From: Amoebophrya sp. A120
Lineage: Eukaryota; Protista; Dinoflagellata
Assembly (NCBI GenBank): GCA_905178155.1
Contig: CAJINV010000006.1
Location: 2,088,230-2,152,229 of the forward strand
Direction of reading: 5' to 3'
Length of the DNA stretch: 64,000 nt
Below are positions 1 to 60,900 of the stretch, in pieces. Each line of letters opens with the position of its first letter. The stretch's first letter is position 1. The position numbers and the translations under genes are program-made. Below the pieces are notes generated by a model, which worked only from the letters and a program-made list of their open reading frames with translations, had not been told where the DNA came from and ran no database searches.

Positions 1-235
1 TGCTGCACCTCATGGAAAATCATACCCTAGTTCCAGTACTAGTGTTCCTCCGCGCCAGGGTCAGAGCGGCCCACAGGGTGAACGACGCGAGCTGCGTGAA
101 GTAGATGTAGATCACGGCCGCCGGAGGTCGTCGTGCGCGGCCAGTTTACATTCTGATCCTGGGCCCAGGACGTCGAGGTCGACCTCCGCCTGGAGTTGTG
201 AAATAAGTGAGCCACCAGTTGCTGACGGCAGCATC

Positions 236-3200
236 TTGCCGGCGCGACAGGAAGAACCACGACCGAGCGACAGCAGCAGCAGCAGAAAGATAACCCCCAC
301 CGTAGATGAAGAAATACAAGTAGAGGCCAGTACCACCACCACGTCAACAATCCCGGTCCGAAATTCTCTGACCGGGGAGACAATTCTGGATTTTCCCAAG
401 CAAAAACTACCTGCCCCGCCCGTCTTTCCGTCTCAACATCTCGGTGCCGCCGTCCTTGCCTCGTCCTCGACCTGCTCTGCAGCAGTAGAGGCTTCTGCTT
501 CTCCTTCTCCGCCGGCTGGAAATAAATTTATTGGCTCTTGCTCTTCGTTGAATTTTTTATTACGAACCGAGTTTTATACCGACGAAAGGGAAAAACAAGG
601 AGCTACACGACGAGTCGGAGAAATAAGCAACAGACAGTGCAGTAGCACTGCACAAACTTCTACGGTTCAAGACTTGATCAACAGTGTTCGGGACCTGAAA
701 TCCATTGCTGCCTCGAGTGGCAAGGAGGTAAAGATTTCAGCGACGTACGAAAGTGGAGGTCCTGCTGCACCACCGCAAAAATCGCCCCCATTAGGTCGTC
801 CCAGCTTCCTGGACCCCCGAGAAAAGGTGGATTTCACCGGAAAAACCAACTACTTCGCAACCATCCTTCCCCAGACCCTGCTTGCGTCACACTTCCAAGA
901 GCTGGCGAATGACGCTTTAGTTGAGGACGCGGACTGCTTCTGGAAGAAGTTTTTCGGCGATGATGATGATGATATTGCAACAGGTAAAAATGTTGTTGCG
1001 GACGAAGATCTTCGTACAAAAACAAAACCAGCACCGGGGAGGTCGTCCTCACAAGGTCCACAACTTGATGCCGGTCTCGGTGGTCCTGCACCTGCTTTTG
1101 TCTCCCCTGCGGAAGTCGAATTCCACAGACAGCACGTGCTTTCCGCACTTCTTGATGAAGGTGCAAATGCGGACGTCGACGAAGCGCAATTGCTCCCACG
1201 AGGACGACACGCGATCACGACGGGGCAGCTGTTGCAGCGATTCATTCAGACGCAAAACTTGATTCTATCAAGTGTAAAAATGTCTGGGTCTGGAAGAATG
1301 CAACCTGTCATGCTAAATCTGAAGCATGCAAAAATCTGTGTTGCATGATTACCAAAAGTCGTCCTGTTTTGACCAAGTCGAGAGGGAGTTTCTCATGCAG
1401 GATAGGCATGAGAAAGATCGCACAGAATCTGTCATGCTAGGTCCTGCATTCCAGACCTTATGGGTCATGGAAAAGCTGCATGACAAGTCGCGCATTCTTC
1501 CAGACCCAGACATTTTTACATTTGATAGATTCCAGATGAAGACGAAAGGGCAGCAGTGAAAACCGCTTTGGAAACAGATACCGGGGTGTTCCACAAAACT
1601 GCTCAACTACAGGACGTGTGCAATATTAAAAGTGATGGCTCACCCTGGTCCCACCTTCAAGATACTACCGGCGCCACGCTGGAAATCTTTGCTAAAGATG
1701 CGTCCTCCGCGAAAATAAAACCGAGCGCAGATGACGAGATTTTTCAATCTGCGATTTGGTCCGAGACCTTACGGCAAGGTGGGGATAGGTACAAAGACTT
1801 GTTGTACTACAATTCTGGTGGTGAAAACAAGATGAAACGGAAGTACCAGCGCGACGCAGAAGACAGTCCTCTCATCCCGCCCACTTTTCTCAACCAACTC
1901 GCGAAATTGTTGCAGCAGGAAATTTTCGACGCTCCTGCTGTCCCGGAGTTTTCCGTGCCGATCTTGCATCAGATACTGGGTGGAGATGATGATGAAGGGT
2001 TGCTGAATTATGTTGGTTTCGAGGATAGTACGACGAGGCCCGCCAACGCTGGTGCTGGACCAGCAGCAGACGCAGGGGGATCTTTCATCCGGAGCAGGCC
2101 GCCAACAGTCAAATGGCGGGTGAAAGAGATGGAGATTCATTCCAACACTGGATTGAATGACATGGAAATGGGCGAGAATGGTAAGATTTCGGCCCGCACA
2201 AACAGGTACAGGACGGACCCGCCAATCACCGTTGAGGATTTCGTATCCTGTGCAAAAGTATCGTACTAGTAGAAACCAGCCATGCTCCGGCTGCCGCCGG
2301 AGCGCAAGGCTGTTGGGCCGGGGCAAGACTGTTTGCCGATCGGACCACAACCCCGCGGGCCTATGCACAACGAAACATATTGCGCCTCGCCAACCCGCAG
2401 GACCACTTGCGCGCTTCCCGCGCCTGTGGGCGCTCTGCGCAGGGAGCAGCTGCAAAGAACACCGGGGGCGAACAGAAGCCGCCCGGCGGGAGAGGGTAGC
2501 GCGAGAGGGTGGCGCGAGAGGGTGCGCGAGAGGGTGGCGCGAGAGGGTGGCGCGAGAGGGTGCGCGAGAGGGTGGCGCGGAAAGGCGCCGAACAAAACAG
2601 CTCCGCGAATGGCCTGCAGTGCCAAATATGGGTAGTGCCATGCGGATTCGCGCCCGCTTCTTTGTGTTTTACCCTCTCGCAGACCTCTCGCAGACCCTCT
2701 TTTTGGCCTCTTTTGGGGGTCCCCGCTAATAATCCGGCTATACTCGCGGGTAGAGGTCGACAGAGGTGGCCGAGAGGTGGCCAAGAGGGTCCGCGAGAGG
2801 TCGCCCCTTATTCGCGCCACCTCTCGCCACCTCTGTCGACCTCTCGCGCCCCCTCTTTTTGACCTCTCTGCACCCTCTGTGCCACTTAGGCGGCGCCTAA
2901 GGGTGGGCCCTTACTGTGGGCCTCATTCGCGCACCCTCTCGCGGACCCTCTCGAACGGGGTCCCGCGCCACCTCTCCACCTCTGTCGACCTCTTTTCTAC
3001 CTCTGTCGACCTCTTTTTTACCTCTCGGCCACCTCTCTGGGACCCTCTGTCTACCTCTTTTTTCGCATTAATATAATGTATAAGTAATCGCAATACAAAT
3101 TTCCTTAGCATTAAAAATAAAGTTTGTAATGCGGATTTGCCTTACGAAAAAAAATTGTAATGCATGACTGCGATGAGTACGAGTAGTACGATACTTTTGC

Positions 3201-5110
3201 ACAGGATATTTCGACTATGAATTCCGCCGCAGACTGTTCGACAAACAGATGTGGGACTTTGTATGCATTGCAAAAATGTCTGGGGCTGCTGGAAGGTAGT
3301 AGCAACTTGTGATGCGGATTGTGGAACGAACAATAACAAAAATCTGCGTTGCGTTGTCACCAAAAGACGTCAGATTTTTGTGTCCACGATCGGATTGTAT
3401 TTCTCATGCAGACTAGGCATCATGGAGAGACCTTCGCAGAATTTGTCATGCTTCGCATGCATTCCAGACCTTCTTTATTCAGATGCAAAAACTGCATGAA
3501 GAAAATTCTCCAGTCCCTCTCCTCGTCGAGACCCAGATCGATGATTTGCCATGCATACTTCGCCCTGAACGACAACAGCCTAGACACCCGCGTGATTCGC
3601 ATTTTTGGCCCCTATAGCGAGGACGTCGAGACCCAACTGCGCGGGCCGCGAGTCCGCAGTGACAAAGTCTACGTCTCGGTTGCTTACACGACCAAAATAT
3701 CAAGTGCAAAAATGTCTGGGTCTGGAAGAATGCATGTTTGTCATGCTTGTCTGGCATGACTCTTAAATCTGTCATGCACGTTACCCAAGAGCTCCATTTT
3801 TCTGTGATGCAGGAACGCAGTTTGTCATGCAGAATAGGCAACACCTAGAAGCTCAGAAACTTGTCATGCTGAGCCAGCATTTGTGGCCTCATCATGAGAC
3901 GCCACCCAGCATCACAAGTTTCCAGACCCAGACACTTTTACACTTGATACAAATTTGACGTGGAGAGGCTGCGAGACCACCCAGAATACGACTACTCGCA
4001 CCATTTTAATTTCAAATCAGACCTGCGCCCGCCGGTGAGTCATCGGTGGAGCGGGCAGACGCTGATTTTCACCTACCGTTTCGATTTCAAGCACCACCGT
4101 GGCCGGAGCGAAGCGATAGCGCGTCGGCAGCAGATACCGGAATGGGTGCGCGGAGCTGAGTATCAACTGCAAATATGTCTGGGTCTGGAAGAATGCCTGA
4201 CTTGTCATGCAGGTTTTCCATGACCCATGAGGTCTGGTATGTAGGACATAGCATGACAGATTTTGTGATAGTTCTATGATGCCTATTCTGCAAGAGAAAC
4301 TGCATCTCGATTAGGTCACAAGTGGACACCAGCTTTTGGTAATCATGCAATACAGATTTTTACATGATTCAGATTTAGCATGACAAGTTCCAACCTACTT
4401 CGAGAGCCAGACATATTTGCAATGCATACCGAACAAGTGCAGGCGGACGATGCAGAGTCGGAACGAGAGCGAAAAAATCAGGCGCTACGAAATGCAAATA
4501 TGTCTCGGTTTCCTGGAAGGATGTTGCAAGGTTTGTCATGCTTGTCTGGCATGAGTAAAGAGTTTGTCGTGCGTGTCCAAGAAAAGACGCTGTTGCTCGT
4601 TATGCAAAAACGCAGTTTGTCATGCGAGAACCGCAATAACAAAGCCTCGCAAATACTTCTCATGCTTGGCGGTGCATTACAGAGCATTCGCTATAATTCG
4701 CAGCCCAGCATTACAAGGTTCCAGACGACCCAGACATATTTGCATTTGATAGGAGTTCTACCAAAACAAACTTCTCCCGCGAATCTCCGGCTTCCAACTT
4801 GACGCCTTCCCGTCACGGTACGACTTTTATTCCGTCGACCGGCTTACGGGGAAGAGCGAAATCCAGTCTATCACAAGAAAAAGCGTTAACATTAACGGTT
4901 TTCACAGATTACAGTCATGCATCACAAACGTAGCCCAACATGCATGCTATGCATGACAAATTCTGGCACGTCTTGTGATGCATTTCTGCATCACAAATTG
5001 CGTTAACGTTAACACTTTTTCCTGTGATACAGTCGGGGAAAATGCAACGGTTGCGTCTCTGGTTGGAAAATGGGCCGGAGGATCAGGACGCGAGCCCAGG
5101 GTTTGACTAA
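236..5110 (+). CDS. Hypothetical protein split by 7 introners; start uncertain
   Basis: Removing each element plus one 5-bp repeat joins ORFs 236, 1556, 3349 and 3960 in frame (e.g. NLI|PDEDERAAVKTALE; VEDF|DYEFRRRLF) through to TAA at 5108-5110. No ATG located in frame. Confidence 0.7.
1266..1527. mobile_element. Introner family A
   Basis: TIR tatcaa.tgtaaaaatgtctgggtctggaagaatgc; DR gattc/gattc. Confidence 0.92.
2244..3208. mobile_element. Introner family B carrying Helitron-like insert
   Basis: TIR tatcctgtgcaaaagtatcgtact; DR tttcg/tttcg. Confidence 0.9.
2276..3087 (-). mobile_element. Helitron-like non-autonomous element, copy 1, nested in a family B introner
   Basis: On - strand starts ttacttatacatt, ends hairpin+atggctgg; host site gcga|tttctactagt, no TSD. 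Confidence 0.75.
3262..3557. mobile_element. Introner family A (degenerate)
   Basis: Degenerate TIR; DR ctttg/cttcg. Confidence 0.8.
3698..3949. mobile_element. Introner family A
   Basis: TIR; DR caaaa/caaat. Confidence 0.9.
4161..4428. mobile_element. Introner family A
   Basis: TIR; DR ctgag/ccgaa. Confidence 0.85.
4486..4751. mobile_element. Introner family A
   Basis: Degenerate TIR; DR ggcgc/ggagt. Confidence 0.8.
4869..5029. mobile_element. Introner family C
   Basis: TIR tatcaca.gaaaaag.gttaac.ttaacg; DR cagtc/cagtc. Confidence 0.9.
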
Positions 5111-5879
5111 AGAATACAACTATGTATTGGTGAGTCGAATAGTTGGGAGATTTACAACCCTACCTGATGGACAAAGGAGGTCCTAGTAAAGCTACTTATT
5201 CGCAATTGTATAGCTCCTGCATATTGTTATTTCCTTTTTTTAGCATGGTCATCCATAATGAGATTTTGGTGCAAAAAAAGAAACCCTGCACAACTTCTTC
5301 CCACAATATTTTGCGAAAAGATTTATAATTGCGCCAAAAATTTTGTGCTCATTTTGGTGTTTACCAGTACCGCAACATTCTCTGGCCCCGCATGCAGATA
5401 TGACTCTTTGTCATCCTTTGCAGGCATGTGCCCCACCATCAATCCATATATTAGAATTTCTCTGTTCAAAATAGAGGAAGACGAAGGGCAACTTTGTTTT
5501 CCCCAGAAGTACCCATGTACGGAATCTTCGAGAGACGTCCTTTTTTTGTAAACAACAACAAAGCGAAGGGTGCAACAAGAGGAGATATCCTCTGAGAGAG
5601 TTCTTGTACAAGTCGAGTCAGGAGTGATGTGACGTCTTTATTTTTTTTTTCTTGGTCACATTGAGGAAGTTCAAGTAGATCTTCTTCTTTGATCTTTACT
5701 GATTCTCATCGTCCGAGGGGACCCGTCGCACAGAAGTTCGTTGATCTTTACTCCGCAGCGAAATAAACAGAGACTCGACGATATGCCGAGGGAGCCATGA
5801 GGTGAACAAAAATGCGTGTAGCGGCCCCCGCGACATCAACATCGGCCTCCACACGACCACCACGCCGGGCGGGGGTGCA

Positions 5880-6030
5880 CATGCAGTGCAAAAGTATCGT
5901 ACTCGTATAAATGCATTACGATTACAAATTTCCTCAGCATGAGAAATAAAATTTGTAATGCTGGTTTACCTTGAGAAAAACATTTGTAATGCATGATTGC
6001 AATACGAGTACGATACTTTTGCACAGGATA
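5880..6030. mobile_element. Introner family B (upstream of the tentative ATG)
   Basis: TIR; DR gtgca/gtgca. Confidence 0.9.
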
Positions 6031-6044
6031 GTGCAAATGCAATC

Positions 6045-9000
6045 ATGATCAGCAAGAACATCAGCATGGAGGTTAATATTTCCTCCCTCGAATCCAAGTT
6101 GTTTCTGTTGCGGAAAAAGCTACACAAAGTCCAAGACGAAAAGCGGTGGCAGCTGCAGCTGCGAGACCGGGTGTTCTCATCCTTCGTTCCTGCGAATTAC
6201 GAGTTCAGGCAGGAAAGTCGCAATATGGGGGTGCCAGGATTGAAATCGTCAAAGTTGAAATAGTTTGTGATGCATAAAACATATACCAGTTGGAAGCCCA
6301 ATTTCCAAGCGGCGCATGACAAATTTCGACTTCATCGAAATCCAGATTGTCATGCTGTTTAGCGAAAGAAGACATCCTTTGTCATGCTACTTTAGCAGCT
6401 CTATCCCAAATCCGAAGCAGGCTCACAATCGGCCTCACTTGCAATTCCTGCAAGACAGTCACTTTGTGCCTTGCATTTCATGCATCACAGATTATTTCAA
6501 CTTTGTCGGTTTCAATCCTGACACACCCATACGCAAGTGGCACTGGATAAAAACGCAGGCGGCGGTGCGCATTCAAAAATCCGTCCGGGGATATTTCACG
6601 CGGAAGTACCTGTCCAAAACCATCTACCCGGCTTTTTTCGACGAAAACACAAAATTGCTGAACGAGGCGAAAACAACCCGACTGCTGCCGCAACTACTGG
6701 AGCTCCGAAGGTATCAAATGCATGTACTTATACGTCTGGGTCTGGGTCTAGAATAAGCAACATGTAAACTTCTGATGCGCATCGTAGAGCAGACAGAAAT
6801 CTGTCATGCATGGACCGCAGAAGCTGCTCAGGTCTTGTCCTCACCCAAAGAGGGGACTAGTCATGCGCATTGGGCATTGCGAAACCTGCTCAACAAAACC
6901 TGTGATGCCTGGAATTGCATACCAGACATTCTGTGTCATGCACAAACAGCATAAGAATCTACCTCCAGACCCTGACATACACATTCACATATTTGCATTT
7001 GATAGAAGGCAGTGCCACTCGCTGCTGTACGATCGCGATGAAGAGAAGCGAAACGCCAGTGCGACTTTGATCCAAAAAACCTGGCGGGGCGCCCGCGTCT
7101 ATCGGCGGATTTGGGTTTGGAAGCGGTTTTTCTATACGCATTGCAAAAGCATCGTAGTCGTACTCGTATAAATGCATTACAAATTTATTCCTCAGCATGA
7201 GAAATAAAATTTGTAATGGGGATTTACCTTAGGAAGAAGATTTCTCATGCATATTTGCAATTGTACGATACTTTGGCGGTGCATATTCTACATCAAAAGA
7301 CAACTGGAGCTCGAAGTAGAGGCGGTGACAATTCTGGCAAGTTTTTGGATATCTTCACAGGAAAAACTGGTAACGCTCACAGACTTTGTGATGCGGCAAT
7401 GCATGACAAAACGTGCCCAGTAAATTTGTCATGCATAGCATGCGTACTAGGCTAATTTTGTGATGCATGGCTGCAGTCCGTAAAACGTTAACACTTTTCC
7501 TTGTGATATTCAAGAGGGTACAAGCAGAGATTCCTGTTTCAGCACCAGCTGGAGCTGATTCGTGCGGAAAACGCCGCGATTGTGATCCAGCGGTTTTTAT
7601 GAATTGCAAAAATGTCTGGGTCTGGAAGGTGGCAACTTGTCATGGTAAATCTGAAGCATGCAAAAATCTGTGTTGCATGAGTGCCAAAAGCTGTCCACTT
7701 TTGACCAAGATCGGCATGATAGGTATCTCGCAGAATCTGTCATGCTAGGTCCCGCATTGCAGACGACATGGATCATGGAAAATCTCCTGCGTGACAAGTT
7801 TACACTTTTCCAGACCCAGACATTTTTGAAATTGATAGTTTTGGCGTAGGTGGCTACGCGATCTGCAAATGATCGTCGGGCGTTTTACGATATCCTGTGC
7901 GAAAGTTGTATCGTTCTTGTAGCAAAAATCGCAAGCTTCACGCATTACAACACTGGTTCCAAAGGGTATTCAGCATGACAAATGTCACTTCTCATGCTGA
8001 GCTAATTTATTGTAATGCAAGCACTCATCACTAGCACGATGCAAAACATTTGCAGTGCATATACGACCTTCATGTCCGAGCAGGAGCGCAGCGAGATGAG
8101 CGACCTTTTCGAGAGACAGGACGAATGTGGAGGTGTTGATGATGCCGACCAGCATAATGATTCATCGCGGGGACGGCACTACAACAAGAACAACAACCTC
8201 CACCTCTACGGCTTGTTACTAGAGCAGCATGATGAGCAAGATCATACCTTTTCCTTTGGCGAGGGAGAAGCAAGTGAAAAACACGACCTTCAAGAACCTC
8301 CGGCACTCCACGACCTGCGTGGAGAAAAAATCGGTGTAGGTGTAGGAGGAGCGCCTTCAACATCCTCAGGCGGGGCAAGAACCCGAACCGCAATAACTAC
8401 GCCGACAACGACAACCTCCAAGCGGGGCCGGAGTCGGTTTGGCGCTGTGCGAATGCAGAGTGCGCACTGGAGAGAGAAGAAGGACGAGAGCGAGGAAATA
8501 GTAGAACTTGATGGGCCGCCCGCTCTTGATCTTGAGAAACATAAACACCACGCCAATGACACGACAGCGGCAGATGAACAAGTGAGTGTCTCAGCGGCGA
8601 CCTCTTGCTCGGCTCCCGCTCCGCCCAGCACATCTTCCTCCTCTTCTTCTAAAACAAAACTCTTGGAGCGCGTCCGGACCGCGAAAAGTGTGGTGTTTGA
8701 AGATGAGGGAGAGCGACCAGAAATAAAAAATGGTGGAGCGAACAATTTCTCGGCGCACAGCTGCACTACGGCTACAACAACTTCCTCCAACGCAATGAAG
8801 TCCTCTTCCTCCACGCCAAGGGCAACAGCCATCCAAGGCAAAAACGCTGCTGGCAAGAATCACGACACAAGAACTACGACCGCTATACAACAACGGACAA
8901 CTACTACTCGTGGTGTACCTGCCGCGAAGATGGCATCAGGTGTTGAAGCTGTAACTTTAAAGACGGCACCAGATTCAAAAACTAGCGGTACAACAACCTC

Positions 9001-9742
9001 CAGTACTAGTAGCAGGAGAACAAATACAACTTCGCAAACGAGAAAATCGAAGAACCAGCATGCTTGTGCTTCAACAAGGATGAGGACGAAAGAAGGAGAC
9101 AACAATCAAACTGCAGGCGTTCCCGGAGGTCCTGCTGGCGCGGTACCAGCGCCCTCCTCGTCTTCGACCCGACCAGGTGTAGTCGGTTCTGCTACGGGCG
9201 GCGGGGGCAAAAAGTTGAAGAAAAAGACCACGCGGACGAGGATTGATTTGGACGCCGCGAGGACTACAAGCACGCTGGACAGTGAAGACGTCGTTGTCCT
9301 CGGAACTAGTAGTACAACGGAGAAGAAAGGTGCAGTTGGAGGAGCAGGACAGCAACGTCAAGAACGGAACAGTGACATGAACCAGGTCAAAGTCTCCAGC
9401 AGCTCCGCCAGTGTCGAGGCCCTGGTGCAAGACGAGAAGGAAGGTGACACACCGCAAAGCCAAAATGATAGGACGAAAGCAGCAGTTGTTGTGGTAGAGG
9501 CAGCTGAAAGCAATGGTGTGGACGTCGATTGCCCAGGACCACCTGCTTCAACAGAAGAAGATGAAGCTCCTCAATTTGTCCACCCGATGCTGGATATAGA
9601 TTTGGATACCATTCAACATCTGGAAAGTAGAGGTGATCGTGATGGTTCCGCGCACCCCGGGAGGTCCTCTGCACTCGACCTGTTTCTCGACGTAAAGCAG
9701 TATTCGCCGCTGTTGAATACGAAGGACGTGTTTTCTCCATAG
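6045..9742 (+). CDS. IQ calmodulin-binding motif protein with long S/T-rich low-complexity C-terminus
   Basis: Spliced frame gives AAVRIQKSVRGYFTRK, SATLIQKTWRGARVYRR, AVTILASFWRGYKQR and AAIVIQRFWRRWLR, then joins ORF 8015..9742. 6 introners in the CDS; start ATG tentative. Confidence 0.8.
6224..6531. mobile_element. Introner family D
   Basis: TIR tatggg.gtg.caggattgaaa.cg.caaagttgaaata; DR cgcaa/cgcaa. Confidence 0.92.
6712..7004. mobile_element. Introner family A
   Basis: TIR; DR gaagg/gaagg. Confidence 0.88.
7135..7285. mobile_element. Introner family B
   Basis: TIR; DR ttcta/ttcta. Confidence 0.88.
7350..7508. mobile_element. Introner family C
   Basis: Degenerate TIR; DR ttgga/ttcaa; frame restored. 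Confidence 0.78.
7598..7837. mobile_element. Introner family A
   Basis: TIR; DR gtttt/gtttt. Confidence 0.9.
7891..8061. mobile_element. Introner family B
   Basis: TIR; DR tacga/tacga. Confidence 0.88.
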
Positions 9743-11731
9743 GAATAGGAATTCCATAGGTATGAATTAAGTAAGTAGAGTACACGAATTTGAGTTCTGA
9801 TTTCCCCTGCTGTCGTCCCTCATTTGCAATGCAAAATTGCAACTTAAAGCTCTTCCTCCAACAGTCCGAAGCCTTCATTGGCTTGGTTGAGTTGACACTC
9901 AAACTGGGGCATCGAAGTAAGTTGTAACAGTAGAATGAAGCTGTACGCAGTGATGAAGTTGTTGACGTCGGTGCCAGCAGTAGTGATGACGTCGGTGCTT
10001 TCGTATTTTGATGCACTAGTGACCAGCACCTTGTTCTAGATGCCTTTCCTCCTTCATGGGAAAAGAGATCGCAGATGTGAGGAGAAGCTCCGCTGATGAT
10101 GAGATCGGTGGTCCTGGTCCCGCTCGGTGAAGTGTCTAAAGAGATTCGGTGTAATGTTTCTGCAGAACGTATGACGATGACGGCCACGAAGAAGGACTAC
10201 ATACCAAAATGAAGAATGTGAATTAGAATGCGAAGCATATTCATCTAGACACCTATTTATTCGCGACCTCAGCGATCGCAAATTGCGGTCGCAATAATTC
10301 GCGACACCTATTGCGATTCGCAATATATAAAGATTTCGGTCGTCATAAAAGTCAATGTCGAGAATCCTCTTCCTCGTATCAGGAGGCAACGAGTCTGCTC
10401 AAGGGACGATTTTGCATAAATCTAAATCACGTAGCGCCCCTGACAAATTGGAGAATTGCGATTGACGAGTCATTGTCATTTTTTTTTTTTGAAGCAAGCA
10501 GACAAATTTTAAGCAAGCACCAGTCTACAGATCATATTACCATTTTTAATTGTACCTCGAAAGTATGGTGAAGTTTGGGGTGTTGACTGCAGTTTTGATG
10601 CTTTGCGCGCAGGCTGCAGACGTTGAACAAGAAAAACAAACGTCGGCTCTCCTAAACGACCGCACCGACAGACGGCTGGGGCCAGAGCGACAGTCCCGCC
10701 CGGATTGGCTTCCAACTTTCGACCTTTTTTGAGCTTCTTTTCTGAGGAGTTAGCTAGTTCACAAATAAAAACTTTAGACCCTAAACCCTAAACCTTTTAG
10801 CTAAACGTGCCAGCACTTTATCAAATTACAACTCATGAAGATGATGATGAAGTCGTGTGTTCTTCCTAGCTACGACGATGATGAAGCAGTGCGGTCTTCA
10901 GGCTTTCGGCAGGGTCGGATCCGCAGCCTGACGTCGGGATTCCGGCAACCCTGAGACCCTTTTTTTTTGGATCCTGAACAGCTGTTTTTTTCGACCCTTA
11001 AAAATTTGAATATATCGGTAGCGGTAGTAGTTGCACTTTCGATACCTGAGCTGTATATGATCATATCATGTGAGCAATACTTTCTAGCTGTATATTTGAA
11101 TTTTGTAGTTTCGCGCCCCCCACGAGATGCGCGAAAAAATGAGATGACAGGCGTCCTGCCTCGTGTGGACTGTTTTTTTTACCCCGGCCGCCTCGACGGG
11201 GCCAGCGCGAGCGTGCGCACGGAAAGACAGGGGCGATCTCATTGACCGAATAAGTGGAGATGTGCAAGATGAAGATAAAAAAGAAAAAAAAAGCCGGGAA
11301 CTACTGGTGCCGAAATCGTTTGGCGACGGCTGGAAGGACCATGTGTTCAGCTTCAGGCACTTGGGTTTCTTGCTAAAATCTATGATAGCCCTGAGCGACG
11401 GTTATTTGTTTTCATGACCATAACCGCGATCCGGTCCTATTGAAAAATAACTACGAGGGAGAGATTGTTCTTGTTATGTTGAGCGAGAAGCGAGACGACG
11501 ATGAGTCGGAATGTCCCACCTCTTTCCTTCTATCTTTCCGTGGCTCTGTGACTGAGTTGGGTCTTCTTGTTGGTTTGATTTCTTCGGCCTGGAGATCATC
11601 TTCTGCACAAAAAGTGATAGCTGATGTAGTTCTTCGGCCAATACTTATTTTGACAGGCACACACAGAGCGCTGCGTTGCCTTCGGGAATAATATCGATCC
11701 TCGAAAACCAAAAAAACACTCAAATCCGAAG

Positions 11732-14292: not shown

Positions 14293-14427
14293 CAGAAACC
14301 TAGAATTCTTTCCTCCAACGTCTACGTCTGCGTCGGCGCGCATGTTGACCACGTTGACCACGACAGAAGCGATTGGAAATTCACTTTAAAAAAAACAGCT
14401 CTGTCGAACCAAAATTTCCGGCAAACC

Positions 14428-50480: not shown

Positions 50481-51940
50481 CGCTTGATCAAGAACATGAG
50501 GGAATAAATAAGTAACGCGCTCGCATTACTCGCCCGAGAAGGTCAAGGTTCCTTTTGAAGTAAGTAAGTACGTAGATCTTTCCGGACAGCTTCTAATATC
50601 CTGAGCTGGCTATTAAAAGTTTAAGTTTTACTTGAGAACACTAGAAGCACATAGATCCTCACAACAAGTTCTTCGCAAATGATATATGATAATGAACGTC
50701 TGCACCAGCTTCAGCTTGTCGCTTTTATGGTACCAGCTCGTTCTTGGAATGAAATATGCGAATAGCGAATGCAAAAATGAAGTCGCTACAGCAAAAAACA
50801 AATTAAAAACGCGATCGGGATGATGAATTGAAGGATCGAGGTCTACTCGTCGATCTCCACCGAGGATGGGAGGAGCTACTTCATACTTCACGTGTGGTCC
50901 TCTTCCTCTGCTGTGGCAAAAATCCGTGAAATAAATCTTCTACATCGTGGTCTTTTGTTTTCCAACGTGATTGAGGGGTCGAAAACATGATAAAGAGCCG
51001 AGATATAGAAGTTCTACTTTGGTCCGTCTTAGAAGAAGTACAGGGGATGATGATCTTCTATCTACGGAGATGAGTAGAGGTTGATCTGAAGCGGAAAATT
51101 AAATCCACGTACTAGCAGTCTGTGTAGTTGACGAAAATGAATTTAAAAGTCTTGCTCTTCAAGTACTCTTCGCGAAAATTAGGTCGAGGAACTGCAGACT
51201 TGGATCTTGAGTTCAATTTCGAAGGGGTCCTTGATTAGAGGTAAAAGTAGAGTAAAAAAACACACCGTACTCAGAATCAGCAGCACGCAACATCGGGGCT
51301 TTAGTTGCATTTCGTGACAAAGAACAAGGATATCTTCGATAACTTGAACTTATTCAGCTGGTTCTTTCTGAGGGCAGTTCATCTCTAGTAATGCTAATAC
51401 GGGACGACGACATGACGGATTTCACAAAGCGATAAGGACCTCCTGGTGTATGATTTATTAGAAAGCGACTAATTTTTTATGCAAGCAGTTGACGACGCAA
51501 AGAGACTCATTCTTGTCTCCTCGATACGGGAAACTACTCCTGCCAAAATGTTGATGCGCGACAACTATTTCCCCTAGAGGAAGAAGCCCCTAGCTTTTTT
51601 TTTCCCTACGTAAGAGTCTTCGAGGACACGACCGGCCTTCCGGGGAGACGAGGAAAAAGAGCGCCTGATATATTGTTTCACACAAGTTGAAAAGTCTTAG
51701 TCGCACATAATTGCTGAATTAGTGAAGTACACCAAATCTTCTAGAACCGCAGAAGGGGGACGAGCTTCTAGCGTGCTACGGGACAACGAGTTACTTTAGA
51801 ATACAGATTAGGTTCTTTACATACTTTTTCAACATATTACTTTCTATCCTTTACCTTGAGTTGTTGTCTGATCTCATACACAACTCTCCTTTCTGTTTCT
51901 ACACTACCCTCACACCACCACCGCTTATATCCTACACAAG

Positions 51941-54900
51941 ATGGAAGTCCGTCCGAAGGAGCGGATGAACATTTCCGCCGCGTACCACATGGCGATGACG
52001 CACGCCGAAGAAGGCATGCAGCCCATGGCGGTGCCGCTCCCCCAGAACTTCAGCTCGTTCGAAGAGGCGGTAGAAAAGGCGGAGACCTTCCAATATCCTG
52101 AGCAAAAACGTCCCCAACCCATAGTCAAGTTGGTAAATCTGCAACACAAATCGCCCAGCTTTGGAAGTTGTGCATGACAAGTTTCCGTCTGTAGTATAGT
52201 GTTGCTTAGCAAGGAAAGCCGCATGAGAAAGCCAATCTCTCATCATATTTACAGCATTACAAATGCCAAATCACGATTTGAAACGCCTCTCGTCATGGGA
52301 ATGCGCATTACAAATGTTCCTGTCGTTGCGCATTTGCATTACAGCCTTGGGGTGGGGACGTTTTTGCTGTGGATATCCAAGACGCGGTGATCTGGCAGTA
52401 CCACCAAGCGAAGAAGCGAAAGGTCATCGCCAAGGGCGTGCCGCCGCGGCAGACCGGGCTGGTAATAAACGGCATCGGGCAGGAAAAAATCGAGGACATC
52501 TCAATGGAAAGCTACGCCCTGACCTCCATTTGCGCAAAGCCGAGATCAAACGGCGCCGCTGACGCACCCTCCGAATTTAGAAAAATGGCACAGGACATGC
52601 GGGCGGGGAGATTGAGAACGAGGAAAAGGAAGTTTCCCAGCAGAAAATTCCGTATTGTTATTGATTGTTTCTACGTACAATTTTTGTTACAGCGGCATTT
52701 TGGGTGGTTTGCGTTTGGTTGTTTGCATGACAAACCGCTCTTCCTTGATTGTCGTGTCACAACCAGAAACTACTTTGTGATGCATATACTCAATAGTTCT
52801 TTCATTATCGTTATCGTTATCAAGCAGCGCGTCAAATAATGATAGAATCCAAAAGCAAAATAAATCAAAAACATCACAGAGGACAAGGACATTCTAGACG
52901 GCAACATCTCCTCCGACTCCGAGGGCCACCCGGGGTACGGCTCTGACAAGGAAAAGGAACGGGCCCGTGGTGACTACATTGCGCAACAAAAAGCCCAGCA
53001 GGGCTTAAACAAGGCGTATGTGAGGCCGAATCGACACAGCAGCATGTCCTCCCGAGACGGGTCGGATTCCGGTTTTCTGTCCGTCGGCGCGAGTCCCATG
53101 AGCTACCTGCAAACCCCGGACCGGACGCCGGAGAGTGAATTTGGGAGAACGCCCGGCACGAATATGGATTTTTATCCCACGAAAAAACTGTTTCACTGTG
53201 GTGCTTTTGCAAGATCTGCATCACAAGTTTGTATACACATGTCACGGAAATAAATTTGCCATGCGCGCTTTCCAAGGGAAAACAGGCTTCAAAATCCAGA
53301 ATGTCTTGCAAGTGTAGCAAGACAAACACTTTGGTGCTTCGTTCTCTGCATCACAAGTTCACAGGGAAACAGTTTATTTTCCTTGCGATAATTGTACCGG
53401 GGGAAATAGCAGCATGATGGCGTTGACAAACGACGCACACAGCGACGCGGGCGACAGCGTGGATAACCAGAGCTTGGCGCTGAGTATTTCTTATTGCAAT
53501 CATGCATTACAAATCTTTTTCTTGAGGTAGATCAGCATTAGAAATTTCAGTTCTCATGCTGAGGAAATTTGTAATGCATTTATTATACACATGAAACTAT
53601 CAGGCCAACTCGCGGCGGGTGATGGGAAAGTAGCCTACAACAAGAGAAAATTCGCCGCGCAAAAAGCCGAGCGCGTATGCATCACAAAAGTATCGTACTA
53701 GTAGAAATCGCATTACAAGTTCGGTCAGCATGACAAGAGGAATCTGTCATGCTAATTTACCTACACAACTAGATTTATAATGCATACCTACACAACTAGA
53801 TGATGATGATGATGATGATGATGATGCATAAACGCGATTAGTACGAGCGCGATAGTTTTGTAATGCATAACGGGAAGCCGCGAATAAAATCTTGGCGGCC
53901 CAGAAGAACGGGTTTGGCAAACAGCAGTTTTTGATTGACCACAGAACACCGACGAGACTGACGGAAATCCTGGAGCATAGTACTAAATGTGGTTTTCATA
54001 ATTGCTATTGCTCTGTAAAAAATGCTGGCGTGGTAATAAGGCAATAGGAGTGACGAGAACTTGTGAAGTAGATGTTGATCATGCACAGCATGCCAGCGCT
54101 GTTGTTCTTGTTGTATTTTTGCATGACACCGAAAATAAGAAATTCCGACACTTCAAGAATAGAGAACAAATAAATCGATTTTGTTCATCATTTAATCAAA
54201 CCCACTTTATCAACAACAAACAGACAAGAGAATCGACAAGCACCCCCTCCCTGTGATTACCATCATCCTCCCGCCCCGCGCTTCCTCCCTCATCAACATT
54301 TGCAACTGCATGCCGTTTATCAACGGCAAATATGTCAGTCTGGGTCTCGAAGCTTGTGATGCTGAAGTATGCATAAGTCAGCTGCTTTCAAGTGCAGCCA
54401 AGCATGACAAGTTTAGTTGACACCGTCTGATTCGTAGCACGCATGACAAACTGCTTGGTCGCATCTCAAAAAAGTGGCGCCTTTGCTGGCTGTATGCAAC
54501 ACAGATTTTTCAGGAATGCAAGACATGCAACACAGATTCCACTTTTCCAGACCCAGACATGTTTGCAACTGCATGCCGTTCTTCGAAGAGCACAAGTGGA
54601 CCCCGTTAACCCGACAGGAGAAGATGTTTTTTAACAGCTACCGTATCAACTGCAAATATATCTGGGTCTGGAAGAGTGTAAACTTGTCATGCAGGTTTTC
54701 TATGACCCACGAGGTCTGGAATGCGGGACCTAGCATGACAGACTCTGTGAGGTCTCTGCCATGCCTATCCTGCATGAGAAACTCCCTCCCAACGTGCTCG
54801 AAAGTGGACAGCTCTTGGCACTCATGCAACACAGACTTTTGTAAGATTCAGATTTAGCATGACAAGTTGCACCCTTCCAGACCCAGACATTTTTGCATTT

Positions 54901-57900
54901 GATATACCGCACGCCGAAACACTTCGAAAAGGCGCTGTTCAACAAAAAACACAAATTCCGGATCCAATTTGTGGACAACGCGAGTCAAATCGAGAACTGG
55001 CTCTCCGTATCAAATGTAAAAATGTCTGGGTCTGGGAACTTGTGATGCTGGGTAGCGTCTCATGATGAGGCTACAAATGCTGGCTCAGCATGAAAAGTTT
55101 CTGAGCTCCTAGGTGTTGCCTATTCTGCATGACAAACTGCGCTTCTGCATCACAGAAAAGCGCAGCTTTTGGGTAACGTGCATGCCAGATTTCAGAGTCA
55201 TGCCAGGCAAGCATGACAAACATGAATTCTTCCAGACCCAGACATTTTTACAGGTGATACTCCGTTTGTGCAGTGTTTCTGGACCCGAAGATGGAAAACG
55301 ACTGGCAGCTGAACGAGTACCCCTTCGCGAAGCACGTCCACTTGTTCACGGCGGTTAGAGGGTTTTTCGTAAACCATGAGAAAGCGCCGGTGAAGAGCAC
55401 GATCTGCGCGAACTGCGACCTGAAGGAGTTAACCTTGCCGCAATCCGTCCGCTATCCTGTGCAACAGTATCGTACTCGTACCAATGCAAGTTTAGCATTA
55501 CAAATCTTGTTTCCATGGCAAATCTGCATTACAAATTTTATTTCTCATGCTGACGAAGTTTGTCATGCATTTATACGAGTACGATACTTTTGCACAGGAT
55601 ATCCGCCACAAGGACGACCAAGTATTGGCGAACTTCTGGCTGGAAATGGAGCGATTTCTGCAAACGATATGAAAGCCTCCGGTTGGAAATCCTCAAAGTG
55701 GAAATAATTTGCAATGCAAAAAACCACTCCAGTTGAAGCGCCACTTCTAGGCGGCGCATGACAAATTCCCCGGGCATCTCAAAGTATGTCTGTCATGCGG
55801 GTTAACGCAAAGGGGTGGTCTTCTCTCGTGCTAATCAGCATTCCAAGTCTGAACCCGTAGAAGGACAATAGGCGGCCTCCATTGCGTCCCCTGCAATACA
55901 GTCTTTTTTGCGTCGCATTTCATGCATCACAAATTATTTCCACCTTGAGGATTTCCATTCTGAGGCTTTCATAAACGAGAAGTCACATGGCGTACATGCA
56001 GCCGAATTTGAAGTTGATTGACGCGGCAAGCGTGAAGCGGGTGGTGCCCAAACCCGACTGGACGGAGCAGCAGAAGAAGGAGTTTGAAGAGCGGGTCGAA
56101 TCCAACAAACAGCTGCAACTGACCATCACGCACAACAATTTGGAAAACTCCGGGGCGGGCGTGATGGAGGTGGATAAGTCCAGGCCGCTGATTACCGAAA
56201 CGATTGACAAAAATTTACTCATCGTCGACAAGGAATCCCTAGTATCCTGTGCAAAAGTATCTGATACTCGTATTGCAATCATGCATTACAAATTTTTTTC
56301 TCAAGGTAAATCTGCATTACAAATTTCACTTCTCATGCTGAGGGAGTTTGTGATGCATTTATAGATACGAGTGCGATACTTTTGCAGTTCATACCTGAAC
56401 CCCCGGTTCTACCGACCTGATTTCGACCTGCAGCGAAAGCGAATGGGGAAACCAACCCTGGCGGAGGAGCAGCAGGCCCTACCGATCGCTCTGAAGCAAA
56501 AGATCGAGAAGGGAGAGAAGTTGACGCAAAAAGAGTTGAACGATTTGAACAAGGAGGGAAAAGTATTCCGAGGAAAAACGTCCCCACCTATCCAGAGTCA
56601 TCAACTTGGGAAGTCTGCTAGACAAATCAACAAGCTTTGCTTGCTGCGCATGACAAATCTAACGAAGGCTCGCCGTAATGTAGTCCGATGTTTAGCTTCT
56701 AGCTCAGAAGCTGCATCACAGATCTAGCCTATCATGCTGATTCGAGCATCGCAATAAATCATCTCAAAACACGACTAGAATAAAACTATGCTTCTCAGCA
56801 TGGGGCTCCGCATGACAAATATTTTCAGCATGCAGATTTGCATGACAAGTACGAGGTGGGGACGTTTTTGCACAGGATAGAAAGTGCCGGATTTCGATGC
56901 GGAGGATGAAAACGGCTTCGACTGGGCGGCACAGCCGATTGCCGCACACACCTTGGACATCGGCGCCGGGCGGCAGATATCAATTGCAACTATGTTGTCC
57001 GGGTCTGGATGAACACAGCTCAGGTGTTTGTCAAGCTGTCTCTGCTTGACTCTGAAGGTCTGGCATGCAAGCCCTAGCACGAACACAGGTTTTTGCAAGG
57101 CCTGCCAATGCGTGATCCGCATGACAAACTTCCGCTTTGTTCGGTGACAAGAAATAACGGGATAGTTTTCTTGCTGTTTATGCATGACAGATGATTTTCC
57201 TGTGATCTAAAATGCGCATCACAAGTCTGCATGTCTACTCCAGACCCAGACATATTTGCGATGCATAGGAGGTCAAGATGCACATCAACGACGAGGAGGA
57301 CAAGACGAAATTTGACAAACAGATCATGAAGCTGATCGAAGACGTATTATTTGGCTTCTGATTTTTTTTCGATAGTTTCAATTTGTCAAACGACCCTTGT
57401 TTGATTGTATTTTCATGCTATTAATTTTTGAACAACTCCCATATACAACACAACATCATAAACAGTGCATCCTCAAGAAGAAGAAGGAGGACAACAGACC
57501 GGAGTTTATCGGAAAGAAAACCAAATAGCTTGGCACCTCCCAATAGCAGCTCCTTTCCTTCTTCATCTTCGTCTTGCATTTGTTCAAACTTGTAAAATTG
57601 TCATGCACCTTATGCAATGTAAATTTCCTGTACATGTACAGAATGCATGACAGATTTCGCTAACTTGCTGTGTCCAACTTGTCATGCTACACTAGGATTG
57701 AAGGCAAGTTTTGTCATGGAGAGACTGCATTTGTACATGTACAGGAAATTTACTGTGGATACACCTAGTAATTCTATATTCATCTCCGGTGCTTTTTTGT
57801 ACCAGTACAACCGTGTGACTGAACGCAGATGTTGAAAAAAAGAGAACAAGGCTCTTCTAGGAACAAGCCCTGGGAGGTGATGATTTTTTCCCCTGTACAC

Positions 57901-60900
57901 GCTTTCGGAGGTGGAACGACAAAATAGGCCGGGAAGAACTCCACAAGGAGAACTTCGTGAAGTGGGTGAACGACAACTTTGACTGTGACAAGGCCTATAC
58001 GGCAGGGAAATTGCACGACGTTGGCTTTTATGCATTGCAGAAGTAACGTCCTAGTATAAATTGCATTACAAATTTTGGCAAGAAGAAAAGTGGAATTTGT
58101 AATGCTGTTTTAACTTAGGAGAGAGATTTATCATGCATATTTACAATTAGTACAAGCACGATACTTTTGCACAGCATAGCTTTGGCCACGCACTAAAAAC
58201 TGACATCGGCTACTACTACCACAAGGACATCAAGCTGGACGCGTTTAAGAGTAAGAAATACGCCAGACACCGCTGTCGAATGAACTATCCTGAGTAAAAA
58301 CGTCCGCCCCAAAGTCAAGATGGGGATTTTGCAACAGAAATCGAGAAGTTTTGGAATTCGGATTCACGCATCACAAGCTGCAGTCCCGATAGTGTAGTGC
58401 AGGCTATAGCAAGGACAAACGCACCACAGATCCATCTACTTAGCCTGGTTACAGCATTGCAAATGCCAAAACACGACTAGAAATGCCTCTCATGGAGATG
58501 CGCATTGCAAATCGATTCCTGTCATTGCGAGTCTGCATGACAACTCTGGGGTGGGGACGTTTTTACAAATGATATTCACACCGAAGTAATGCTCGTGGAG
58601 TGGTACGACCGCCCCGGCGCAAAAATGATCAGCTACATCACAGTATCGAATGTAAAAATGTCTGGGTCTGGAAGAATGCAAGATTTGTGATGCAGGTTTT
58701 CCATGACCCATGAGGTCTGGAATGCGAGACCCAGCATGACAGATTTTTTGAGGTCTCTACCATGCCCTTCCTGCATGAGAAACTCCCTCTCAACTTGGTC
58801 AAAAGCGGCCAGCTTTTGGTACTCACGCAACACAGATTTTTGCATCATTCAGATTTAGCATGACAAGTTCTAACCTTGTTCCAGACCCAGACACTTTTAC
58901 ATTTGATACACAGCAGAAGACAAGGCCAAGCAGGAACGCGACGCAGAGTATGCTGCAGCGGAGAAGGCGCAAAAGCGAGCGGCCAGGGACGAGAAAAGAA
59001 AGGAGCATATCGTAAGGAAAAATCCCCCCTCCCCATATCAAAAAGGCAGCCTTTTGAAAATTTGTAATGCTGATTTGTGGTCACAAATTAGGTCAGTGTT
59101 GCAAGAGAGCAAGGCCAGAGCGTGCGCCGCCTTACGCAGGCGGTTTGTAATGATGCGCCAACAGGGCAGAGCAGACGTCTGCCATGCTGAGTGCCTATCT
59201 CTAGCCAGCCCCTTCCAGGCACTGTAAGCATCTGCCTGCAGTCCTCCTCTGGAAGACAAAGCTGATTTGTGCACACGAATCCCGCAACACAGATTGCCAT
59301 TTTGATATGGGGGAGGATTTCTCAGTTCGATAAAACAGGAGAAAAAAAACGGTGGCGATTGGGACAACTACAAGAAAAACGATGAATGGAAACAGTCTTC
59401 CAGCTGGCTATGCATTGCAAAAGTATCGTACTCGTAGTAATCCTAATCGCAATCATGCATTACAAATCTCCATCCCAAGGTAAAACAGCATGACAAATTC
59501 CATTTGTCATGCTGAGCTAATTTGTTTTGCAGTTACTACTAGGGCGATACTTTTGCAGTTCATACTGACAACAAGGAAACAACACTTACAACTCGTCCAG
59601 CTGGAATAACAGCAGTGGAAACAACTACAATTCAGGAAACGACTGGAACCAGGGAGGTGGTGCTGGTTCTTGGGGTGCTGGCGACTGGAACAACAAAACG
59701 ACTTCCGGGTACAACAATAATTCCTCAAGTTGGAACAATGACTACGGTAAAACTAGCTGGAAGAATGACGATAAAAAAGACAACTGGGACAACAGTTACA
59801 ACAAGTACGACAAAACTTCTTCCTACGAAAATGCTGACAAGAAGGCAGCGTCCTACAACGCGTTCAACGCCCCTGCCGCACCAGCGGGAGAGCCGAGTGA
59901 TAAAAAGAATTCCTTCGAGGTTGAAGAGTCTGTTGTCCCCCGACCTGGTCGCGGCGGAAGCAAAGAAAAAGAGAGACAAAAGTCCCCAGAGCGAGGACGG
60001 GGAGGCAGTAAGGAGAAGGAGCGCGGTACTACGTCTGCTGCTAGCAGTTCTCAAAACAAGTTTCTCTTCTACGAAGGTAGAAATGAGAACACCCGTCGAG
60101 AGGACGACGTGGAGCGGTACCATCGATCGAGTAAGTACAGGGAAGATTATCATGATAAAGATGACTACAACTACCGGGGTGGCAGCAAGCACAAAGACTA
60201 CAACCAGCCATCTCGGTACAGCCGCAGCCGGGGGCGGGATAGAGGAGCCAGGAGGTCAAAGGAAAAGGAGGACGAGAGAGACCGGTACGACCGCCGCGAC
60301 CGTAGTCGATCCAAAGAAGTGAATAAAGAGGAAAACAACGGCCGGGGGAGGAGTCGGTATGGAAACAGACGGGACGGGAGTAAGGACAAGGATATCAAAG
60401 ACAAAGGGGATATCAAGAAAGAAACAACTACCTCCCGCGACGCAAAATCGAAAGCAAAGGACAATATCACCGCCAAGGAAGAGAAGAAACCCCCACCTCC
60501 TCCGCCTGCTAAGAAGAAAGCTGCAGCTGCTGCGTCCTCTTCCTCAAGTTACAAACCCGGTGGCGGCGTGGAGGAATATTTGGCGGCGAAAGCGAAAAAG
60601 GAGGCTGAAGAGGCGGCGGCGGCAAGTGCGAGGGAGGTGAAATCTAGTCCGGTTATTGACTACACGAAGGTTAGAGCGGCGGATTTGTTGGCGGATGGAG
60701 ACAGGTATGTTTATATTGCAATCATGCATTTACAAATCCTTTTCCTAACGTGAATCCGCATTACAAATTTCATTTCTCACGCTGAGGAAATCGAAATTTG
60801 TAATGCATTTATGCGAGTGCGATACTTTTGCAGTGGATACGTTTTTCATCGTCATGCCACCTGAACTTGTCATGCAAGTTGAACAAATCAAAATGAAAAT

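Follow-up and report, generated by a model that had tools for sequence, protein, structure and literature searches.

A stretch of 64,000 nucleotides from the genome of Amoebophrya sp. A120, referred to here as the window, raises the question of how genes are expressed when inverted-repeat elements interrupt them again and again, and of where exactly and by what agent these elements are removed.

Elements and genes of the window

Between positions 1266 and 59564 we count 87 elements with terminal inverted repeats (TIRs) that interrupt genes, each 108-1190 bp long and together about 22 kb, one third of the window; all eight recognisable genes carry them. A scan supplied 81 of them, four were found by eye, 57507-57899 came from RNA joints and 39006-39293 from annotated protein P0025, and the bounds of 54318-54575 were reset from RNA joints. 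A strict scan for TIRs with flanking repeats gives 60 matches in the window, whereas 15 windows simulated with a Markov model give 0-1 each. Together with RNA and protein support, this establishes the TAT...ATA elements that a first-pass annotation had noticed in these genes, although its count of 86 is now 87. The exons are 99-100% identical to named A120 proteins, which places the window in the A120 genome itself; the elements are thus the introner elements described for this organism by Farhat et al. 2021, a system that was already known and to which the first-pass annotation had rightly linked them.

All genes lie on the forward strand. Gene A encodes a protein of no assigned kind (P0026) and is present as its 3' part (1-5107), with seven elements (1266-1527, 2244-3208, 3262-3557, 3698-3949, 4161-4428, 4486-4751, 4869-5029). 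The IQ-motif gene (5745-9739) also has seven, the first possibly in the 5' untranslated part (5880-6030, 6224-6531, 6712-7004, 7135-7285, 7350-7508, 7598-7837, 7891-8061). The fatty-acid hydroxylase/desaturase gene (11732-15028, 430 aa) combines eight elements (12099-12262, 12336-12486, 12558-12779, 13267-13545, 13600-13759, 13836-14013, 14467-14693, 14744-14936) with GT-AG introns at 12931-13118 and 14194-14398. Gene E, again of no assigned kind and rebuilt from open frames only (15894-23160), holds 13 (16235-16485, 17335-17499, 17764-17955, 18078-18387, 18475-18731, 18857-19124, 19293-19570, 19630-19860, 19904-20124, 20198-20460, 20893-21154, 21608-21865, 22808-22987). Ten interrupt the p25-alpha-domain gene (P0027; 25980-32097, start approximate): 26514-26668, 26817-26976, 27413-27562, 28556-28664, 28997-29256, 29939-30118, 30485-30592, 30637-30917, 31350-31616 and 31703-31965. 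The membrane protein gene corresponding to A120 protein P0025 (34934-42020) has 12 (35366-35531, 35708-36707, 36733-37058, 37444-37654, 37855-38137, 38196-38348, 38443-38648, 39006-39293, 39355-39664, 39930-40046, 40128-40283, 40754-41011), as does the protein kinase gene, A120 protein P0001 (44185-50477; 44852-45065, 45440-45598, 45676-45967, 46000-46304, 46430-46693, 46906-47056, 47098-47353, 47400-47707, 47821-47986, 48115-48283, 48320-49509, 49530-49771). The Cdc73-like gene, of which 51872-60704 is the part within the span, carries 17 elements, 16 of them inside the RNA-covered stretch (52094-52375, 53173-53390, 53676-53869, 54318-54575, 54644-54904, 55008-55259, 55453-55601, 55668-55973, 56243-56393, 56564-56879, 56978-57267, 57507-57899 with 57611-57761 nested in it, 58029-58178, 58286-58574, 58644-58908, 59008-59332, 59409-59564), and GT-AG introns at 53484-53603, 53980-54223 and 57344-57465. 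Ordinary GT-AG introns thus coexist with the elements in the genes of the window. Element-like sequence also occurs within the GT-AG introns at 53484 and 60705.

When each element is removed together with one repeat copy, frames of 867, 829, 912, 582 and 869 aa are obtained across 7-12 elements each, and kinase, IQ, fatty-acid hydroxylase, p25-alpha and Cdc73 domains are found on the exons, in keeping with the earlier claim that such removal rebuilds coding motifs. Retention introduces a stop or a frameshift in 83 of the 84 elements tested, in keeping with the earlier statement that the elements must be removed for the genes to be expressed.

Removal at the RNA level

RNA contigs with spliced GT-AG introns omit 30 of the 87 elements precisely; the four RNA-type runs behind them represent one sample, their RNA type is guessed, and contigs drop rare forms. 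Each run contains one contig of 5.1-5.2 kb that omits 16 elements and three GT-AG introns between 52880 and 60704 (15 of the 19 joints are listed, and the other four were set by contig positions), leaving a frame open across 3,286 nt. Two further RNA contigs have lengths that fit, to the base, the loss of eight and of six elements, the latter in the IQ-motif gene. The contigs join at the direct repeats, as claimed beforehand, and not at the cryptic GT/GC/GA-AG sites that had been named as the contrary outcome. The elements therefore leave at the RNA level, and we regard this, jointly with their identity as A120 introners, as practically certain. Raw RNA reads from two other runs (X12, 595 reads; X13, five reads) match element ends only, at 90-95% likeness, and not exons.

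A fixed register of the cut

Among elements whose two repeat copies differ, and which are for that reason informative, all fit one register, in which the exon keeps bases 1-4 of the left repeat and base 5 of the right repeat; we hold this with high confidence. The intron would accordingly very probably be N-TAT...ATA-NNNN, that is, the last left-repeat base, the element and the first four right-repeat bases. All 21 informative elements are compatible with four left bases kept (k = 4), nine of them judged from RNA and 12 by way of the annotated proteins P0001, P0025, P0026 and P0027 (which may themselves rest on like reads and an aligner), as against 14 for k = 5 and 13 for k = 3. When junctions were drawn at random and independently, a common register came up in 20 of 200,000 trials (3,524 with RNA only, 2,644 with proteins only). 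In-frame stops rule out k of 3 or less at 59409-59564 and k = 3 at 7350-7508, and a single element alone fixes k = 4. The intron at 56242-56397 (forward strand), one left-repeat base plus element 56243-56393 plus four right-repeat bases, is fixed by RNA: it ends GT..TG, and its joint, 56241 to 56398, has an ambiguity of 0 in four runs from one sample. Even the degenerate element 57507-57899, with TAT/ACA ends and the nested 57611-57761, is removed precisely (intron 57506-57903, forward strand). Among 57 cases from related loci examined for stop codons, none was informative about the register.

A fixed register restores exactly one target copy and hence brings back the codons as they were, whatever the site or phase, which accounts for harmless insertion wherever it occurs. 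What had been described as the lack of a splicing signature becomes the rule N-TAT...ATA-NNNN, by which gene models can be corrected and the map positions of any lariat, circle or linear ends predicted, making the chemistry of splicing testable. The position of the register is new here: Farhat et al. left the border open, their text describing splice sites as variable and saying of the border that it "remains unknown" (PMC7789003), though this position may already appear in their figures as the most frequent one.

Anatomy and families

The elements start with TAT in 78 of 86 cases tallied and end with ATA in 84, and the inverted-repeat end reads TAT, about seven variable bases, AAA. The flanking direct repeat is exactly 5 bp: its copies agree in 72-78 of 86 elements at each of the five positions, and beyond these the agreement of left and right drops to 18-23. 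Of these repeats 50 are perfect, 22 match at four of five bases, ten at three and four at two. The first-pass description of nearly all elements as bounded by TAT/ATA and a 5-bp duplication is thus accurate; its estimate of about 11 TIR families is replaced by eight multi-member clusters (26, 26, 8, 5, 4, 3, 3 and 2 members) and ten singletons. Each of the two largest families is split 14/12 between orientations. Of 83 elements, 63 are predicted to pair at their three terminal bases and 68 at positions 8-14.

The statement that none has GT-AG ends holds for all but one: 6712-7004 alone in the window gives a GT-AG intron in the fixed register (6711-7008, forward strand), as do 10 of 407 elements when related loci are included, and GT/GC/GA-AG can be read in some register in eight of 86. 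As a class, the elements lack the canonical U2 donor and acceptor pair (GT/GC with AG). No Rfam model, of group I or II introns or of any other RNA family, matched the window at gathering score, and the TIR pattern had no match in viral contigs.

Mismatched repeats alter the encoded residue between copies in 24 of 36 cases in the window and, for related loci, in 31 of 57, so matched codons are not enforced on the two copies. The idea that both copies are kept to the same residues was rejected, half of the mismatches falling at codon positions 1 or 2 (27/54 and 28/57). Nor do mismatches drift towards G or AG among 407 oriented elements (87 from the window, 320 from related loci). A drift to G at intron -1, seen in 7 of 14 cases in the window, was not replicated elsewhere (4 of 16), and an invariant branch A at -7 was weakened as a candidate (0 versus 7 of 87 in the window; 3 versus 7 of 320 in related loci, p 0.34).

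Agent of removal

Taken as a whole, the explanation that we somewhat favour is that MITE-like elements are cut from pre-mRNA by a relaxed U2-type spliceosome at a fixed register; for the spliceosome as the agent, our confidence is even or barely above. A U2-type spliceosome needing neither a G at +1 nor a terminal AG would remove the elements, whose inverted repeats, once paired, would hold the two intron ends close to each other. N-U-A(-U) would serve as the 5' site, in the manner of G-U-A in ordinary host introns, and the 3' site would be measured four bases past the stem, not read as AG. The register puts U-A at intron +2/+3, as in host GT-AG introns: all seven such introns read in the window begin GTA (two via the donor only), and the elements have U at +2 in 85 of 86 and a purine at +3 in 86 of 86, a pattern that may follow from the transposon tip, so that U-A as a spliceosome signal may merely mirror the symmetry of that tip. 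Farhat et al. report for A120 83 of the 89 spliceosomal proteins, together with U2, U4, U5 and U6 but no U1 snRNA, and the nine commonest non-canonical motifs in A120 (Table S4) all have T as second base, which may be an aligner preference (PMC7789003). A bolder reading, which we rate as somewhat less likely than not, is a splicing code for A120 in which a U1-less spliceosome would recognise nothing but N-U-A on the 5' side, would locate the 3' site by counting four bases from the RNA stem that the transposon supplies, and would dispense with both terminal G's. Under such a code any element with TAT-tip TIRs and a 5-bp duplication would make a perfect intron wherever, in whatever phase and whichever way round it had landed, and the geometries of transposon and splicing would be matched (1 + 4 = 5).

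Established spliceosome chemistry relies on the G at +1 and the G at -1. Against the spliceosome, 130 of the 407 oriented elements have G at +1 and 28 close with AG, much as in the flanks. This is a point in favour of a strong rival, which we judge possible though on balance doubtful, in which the same elements are cut in the same register, one base before and four after the stem, by non-spliceosomal machinery: either a structure-guided endonuclease working with an RNA ligase, or a second, divergent complex of the sort suggested for Euglena. That elements leave in both orientations fits this rival, as do the nonconventional introns of Euglena, which share the layout, with a paired motif, fixed unequal spacers (3 and 5-6 nt), junction repeats, a proposed MITE origin and GT-AG introns alongside (PMC12501133, PMC11282704), and which reportedly exit in the form of circles instead of lariats (PMC11282704). 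Those introns differ in having CAG/CTG motifs and a purine exon start in an unrelated lineage (PMC12501133); the elements of the window, with ends N-TAT and ATA-NNNN, spacers of 1 and 4 and no base preference or purine bias at the exon start, do not carry the euglenid signature N3CDG / CHGN5-6|R. The U-A shared with host GT-AG donors and the near-complete spliceosome argue against the rival, and so does the precise absence from RNA of 54318-54575 and 57507-57899, neither of which has a predicted terminal stem. The upstream tip T (intron +2) is also better kept than the downstream one (1 versus 9 deviations among 407; Fisher p 0.02), a weak asymmetry, since three positions were tested and the signal comes from related loci (0 versus 7 of 320; window 1 versus 2 of 87). 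If the agent is the spliceosome, the range of that machine widens to work without +1 G and AG; if not, this is a second case, beside euglenids, of bulk non-spliceosomal splicing of mRNA.

Stage- or nucleus-specific excision from DNA, like that of ciliate internal eliminated sequences, is very improbable. The ends are transposon-like, and the DNA-like run X1 may represent one life stage only; its contigs, however, run unbroken through seven elements (6712, 7891, 12099, 14467, 14744, 17335 and 17764) at a depth of 27-31, like unique DNA, and contigs free of elements are also free of GT-AG introns. We know of no germ/soma split in this parasite. More improbable still is that the skips are reverse-transcriptase template switches between repeats at the hairpin base, with elements kept in mRNA and the cell coping in some other way, such as ribosomes that hop from one matched codon to the other: the transcript data are all cDNA-based, a hairpin with a short direct repeat is a known setting for this artefact (PMC2923612) and one full codon always lies inside the 5-bp repeat, but the joined form is the main contig at a depth of 40-140, depth inside 56564-56879 is zero in all four runs, a contig within 57507-57899 reaches 3.4 versus 139.6, the joint there is exact with two of five repeat bases agreeing, the register is single, and the residue-changing mismatches speak against copies constrained to matched codons.

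Related systems and mobile origin

Like the A120 introners of PMC7789003, the elements have TAT + 7 variable bases + AAA, a border direct repeat, non-canonical ends, RNA-backed removal and families in the same genome, with no internal transposase in that description; the published introners are given 3-5 nt repeats and variable splice sites, in contrast to the exact 5 bp and single register found here. Non-canonical introns make up about 65% of A120 introns (PMC7789003, Table S4). Gozashti et al. 2025 (PMC12130899) report 58 A120 families; among 11 of these from one part of a table, most are classed as TIR DNA elements with many non-canonical ends, as in the window, and the passages concerned state no fixed register. 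Fritillaria borealis likewise has bulk MITE-derived non-canonical introns, for which a modified U2 spliceosome is named, but with defined AG-AC/AG-AT ends from a TAC target, in contrast to the free terminal bases here (PMC11282704). Short non-autonomous TIR elements with constant target duplications that become introns are also known as MITEs and as introners of Aureococcus and Micromonas, the latter with canonical splice sites (PMC7789003), unlike the elements of the window.

The elements are short and non-coding, with TIRs, a target duplication of constant length and many copies in both orientations, and are likely to be non-autonomous, MITE-like transposon derivatives. Their insertion would be the work of a DDE transposase or integrase whose gene lies elsewhere and which makes a 5-bp staggered cut. 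The anatomy thus agrees with the MITE-like origin proposed earlier, but no such enzyme was found in the window or in the related-locus ORFs searched: Pfam showed no transposase, integrase or reverse transcriptase in 102 of 336 long ORFs of related loci or in six of the window's ORFs that are GC-rich or intergenic, in line with the earlier remark that the window encodes no transposase. A long coding copy with the same TIRs was found neither in the window nor in related loci. Family 38, with TIRs and ORFs similar to Copia/Gypsy sequence (PMC12130899), is a candidate mobiliser.

Five elements with perfect repeats exceed 600 bp. Three carry or resemble a GC-rich insert of about 850 bp (approximately 35836-36680, no strand assigned), which is nested in 35708-36707, has relatives inside 2244-3208 and 48320-49509 and lacks a target duplication; the other two have no stop-free frame above 137 aa. 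Members of these families are also present in a related assembly, where two sites that are empty in the window carry insertions. In one of its loci (L095, covering one flank only of each insertion), element ends flank both sides of a 67-bp exon piece that is 97% identical to, and uninterrupted at, positions 59962-60028 of the window.

The introner system of the window

The element system in this window is real and striking, yet it has already been described in the A120 genome. The last exon of the kinase gene (44185-50477) matches a named Amoebophrya sp. A120 protein at 100% identity, and a second A120 protein matches an exon of another window gene at 99%. In the sections of Farhat et al. 2021 (PMC7789003) available to us, A120 introner elements have inverted repeats of TAT, seven variable bases and AAA, flanked by 3-5 nt direct repeats, with no clear splicing signature reported; the border position is said to remain unknown, and neither a U1 snRNA nor a transposase was found. 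The first-pass annotation's link to the Amoebophrya introners thus holds, and the window elements are a rediscovery of that published system; what is added here is a rule that fixes the junction, together with the tests this permits.

Searching for TAT...ATA pairs whose arms and flanks match gave 60 strict matches, versus 0-1 per window for 15 simulated ones. The tally rose to 87 elements (about 22 kb, spanning 1266-59564), against the earlier count of 86, once looser ends, joints in RNA and an annotated protein were included; the five-base repeat and TAT/ATA ends noted earlier stand. The elements measure 108-1190 bp, fill the three frame classes about equally and cluster into eight families with several members plus ten singletons, both largest families showing a 14/12 split between orientations. 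Flanking repeats measure exactly five bases, with 72-78 of 86 elements matching at each position and chance level further out. All eight recognisable genes lie on the + strand and are interrupted by elements, and the same set also holds ordinary GT-AG introns. Long frames open once each element and one repeat copy are taken out, and in 83 of the 84 elements tested retention is predicted to bring in a stop or shift the frame. Between genes lie mutually dissimilar GC-rich blocks of up to 72% GC (~23800-25400, 33000-34800, 42100-44000 and 62300-64000), the first three upstream of genes; five ORFs tested from these blocks are without a Pfam match.

Removal at the RNA level

In each of four runs, typed as RNA by guess and all from one sample, a single contig of 5.1-5.2 kb covers 52880-60704, within the span of a Cdc73-like gene, and lacks every one of the 16 elements and the three GT-AG introns there; 15 of the 19 joints are listed directly and the other four are set by contig positions. 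The frame on this contig is open across 3,286 nt, and depth within element 56564-56879 is zero in all four RNA-type runs. Two further contigs fit the loss of eight and six elements, exact to the base, bringing RNA support for removal to 30 of the 87 elements, as seen in assembled contigs, which hide rare forms. A further 41 are missing from four annotated proteins (three mapped; that of the p25-alpha-domain gene read by eye), and for the remaining 16 it is the open frames that support removal. In a DNA-like run (X1), contigs pass through seven elements without a break at unique-DNA depth. Taken together, these results make excision from DNA and template switching both unlikely sources of the skips.

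Raw RNA reads of two runs with the same species label (X12, X13) match only element ends, at 90-95%, and not exons over 1001-21000; they come from a more distant strain sharing related element ends. Between the IQ gene (5745-9739) and the desaturase gene (11732-15028), a 759-nt RNA-type contig (10504-11262; depth 18.8) is unspliced and has no gene assigned.

A fixed register of junctions

Mismatches between the two repeat copies make it possible to read from the transcript which copy supplied each base. The joint at element 56243 is unambiguous, the exon keeping left bases 1-4 and right base 5; with the skips on contigs that also lack GT-AG introns, this upholds the proposed excision at the direct repeats. 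RNA gave register ranges for another eight elements, and annotated proteins for twelve. Four retained left bases fit all 21 informative elements, five fit 14 and three fit 13, mismatched elements with a synonymous or unseen outcome being left out of this count; when junctions were drawn independently at random, a single register fitted them all in 20 of 200,000 trials. In-frame stops rule out shorter left shares at 59409 and 7350. The complete fit and these exclusions define the intron as N-TAT...ATA-NNNN, with one free base before the stem and four after it, whose sum is the five-base duplication. The same register holds for the removal of element 57507-57899, although its repeat matches at 2/5, it ends in ACA and it contains a nested element; repeat identity is thus not required.

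As excerpted from Table S4 of Farhat et al. (PMC7789003), T stands second in all nine commonest A120 non-canonical motifs, and all nine commonest A25 motifs start with TT; these fit the register, but aligner preference could yield the same pattern. The register is not stated in the portions we retrieved of the literature since 2021 on Amoebophrya introners and transposase or splice sites and spliceosome, a scope outside which Roy et al. 2023 (Curr Biol) falls; Fig. 3, S19 and S23 of Farhat et al. may bear on it.

The exon stretch 54299-54317, directly upstream of element 54318-54575, repeats that element's right end (54562-54580), giving a 19-base ambiguity at the RNA junction. Element 5880-6030 is the only one in the window with a CAT upstream tip, and the IQ-gene RNA contig starts at precisely the right end of this element, which may weakly hint at poor removal or just mark where the transcript begins.

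Agent of removal

For most elements, the two ends are predicted to pair. The fixed register places U-A at +2/+3, as in all seven GT-AG donors read in the window, and element-like sequence is present inside GT-AG introns too; in the sections available of PMC7789003, the A120 spliceosome is near complete, with U1 not detectable. On balance we lean towards a relaxed U2-type spliceosome, for which a ruler would set the 3' site. Removal by a separate, non-spliceosomal machinery is a tentative second reading: both terminal G's are free in these introns, which counts against the spliceosome, and Euglena nonconventional introns are reported, in the part of PMC11282704 at hand, to leave as circles by a machinery described as unknown. 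Those introns have paired ends and, according to an extract of PMC12501133, fixed spacers of 3 and 5-6 nt, whereas the window elements have 1 and 4. Two GT-AG introns (53484-53603 and 60705-~60978) start with GTAT and contain internal sequence of the 150-bp element family, possibly through conversion of an element to a canonical intron or insertion beside a donor.

Relatives and insertion

By end-motif scan, one other assembly has at least 157 matching loci (594 kb). Among the relative loci listed, the same families occur at up to 97% identity, with at least 343 elements (329 starting with TAT, 333 ending in ATA). The detector used for this count ignores the first three bases and requires a 4/5 repeat; in the window it picked up 65 of the elements. 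At one locus (L095), a 67-bp exon piece has element ends on either side, and the matching piece of the window runs through without interruption; these filled and empty sites indicate that insertions differ among close relatives. The coding strand oriented 320 of the 343, giving with the window a pooled set of 407, in which neither G at +1 (130) nor an AG end (28) is preferred among the loci listed and the window. In this same set, T at +2 deviates in 1 upstream versus 9 downstream ends (p 0.02); for the third tip base the figures are 14 versus 3 (p 0.01). Each signal comes mostly from one of the two sets, and three positions were tested.

Terminal inverted repeats together with a constant duplication point to insertion through a DDE transposase or integrase, which would recognise bipartite ends (a TAT tip with an A-run inside) and cut the target with a five-base stagger. 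Neither enzyme was found in the window or the listed relative loci by long-copy search and by Pfam on 102 of 336 long ORFs of those loci and six GC-rich or intergenic ORFs of the window, in agreement with the first-pass annotation for the window. A120 family 38, bounded by terminal inverted repeats and carrying Copia/Gypsy-like ORFs in the extract available of Gozashti et al. 2025 (PMC12130899), is an odd candidate for the insertion enzyme. At L031 (another related locus), an 834-bp member of the 260-bp family (632-1465) carries ~580 bp of unrelated sequence in which there is no long frame.

A GC-rich insert of ~850 bp that contains short tandem repeats lies within elements of two families (window 2244-3208, 35708-36707 and 48320-49509; related locus L022, 505-1608). 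It begins with TACTA, ends in a small hairpin, sits after AT and makes no target duplication, and we take it to be a Helitron/Helentron-like candidate. The elements at 2244 and 35708, which lie in opposite orientation, are 87% alike across 995 bp, host element included; the composite thus moved as a unit.
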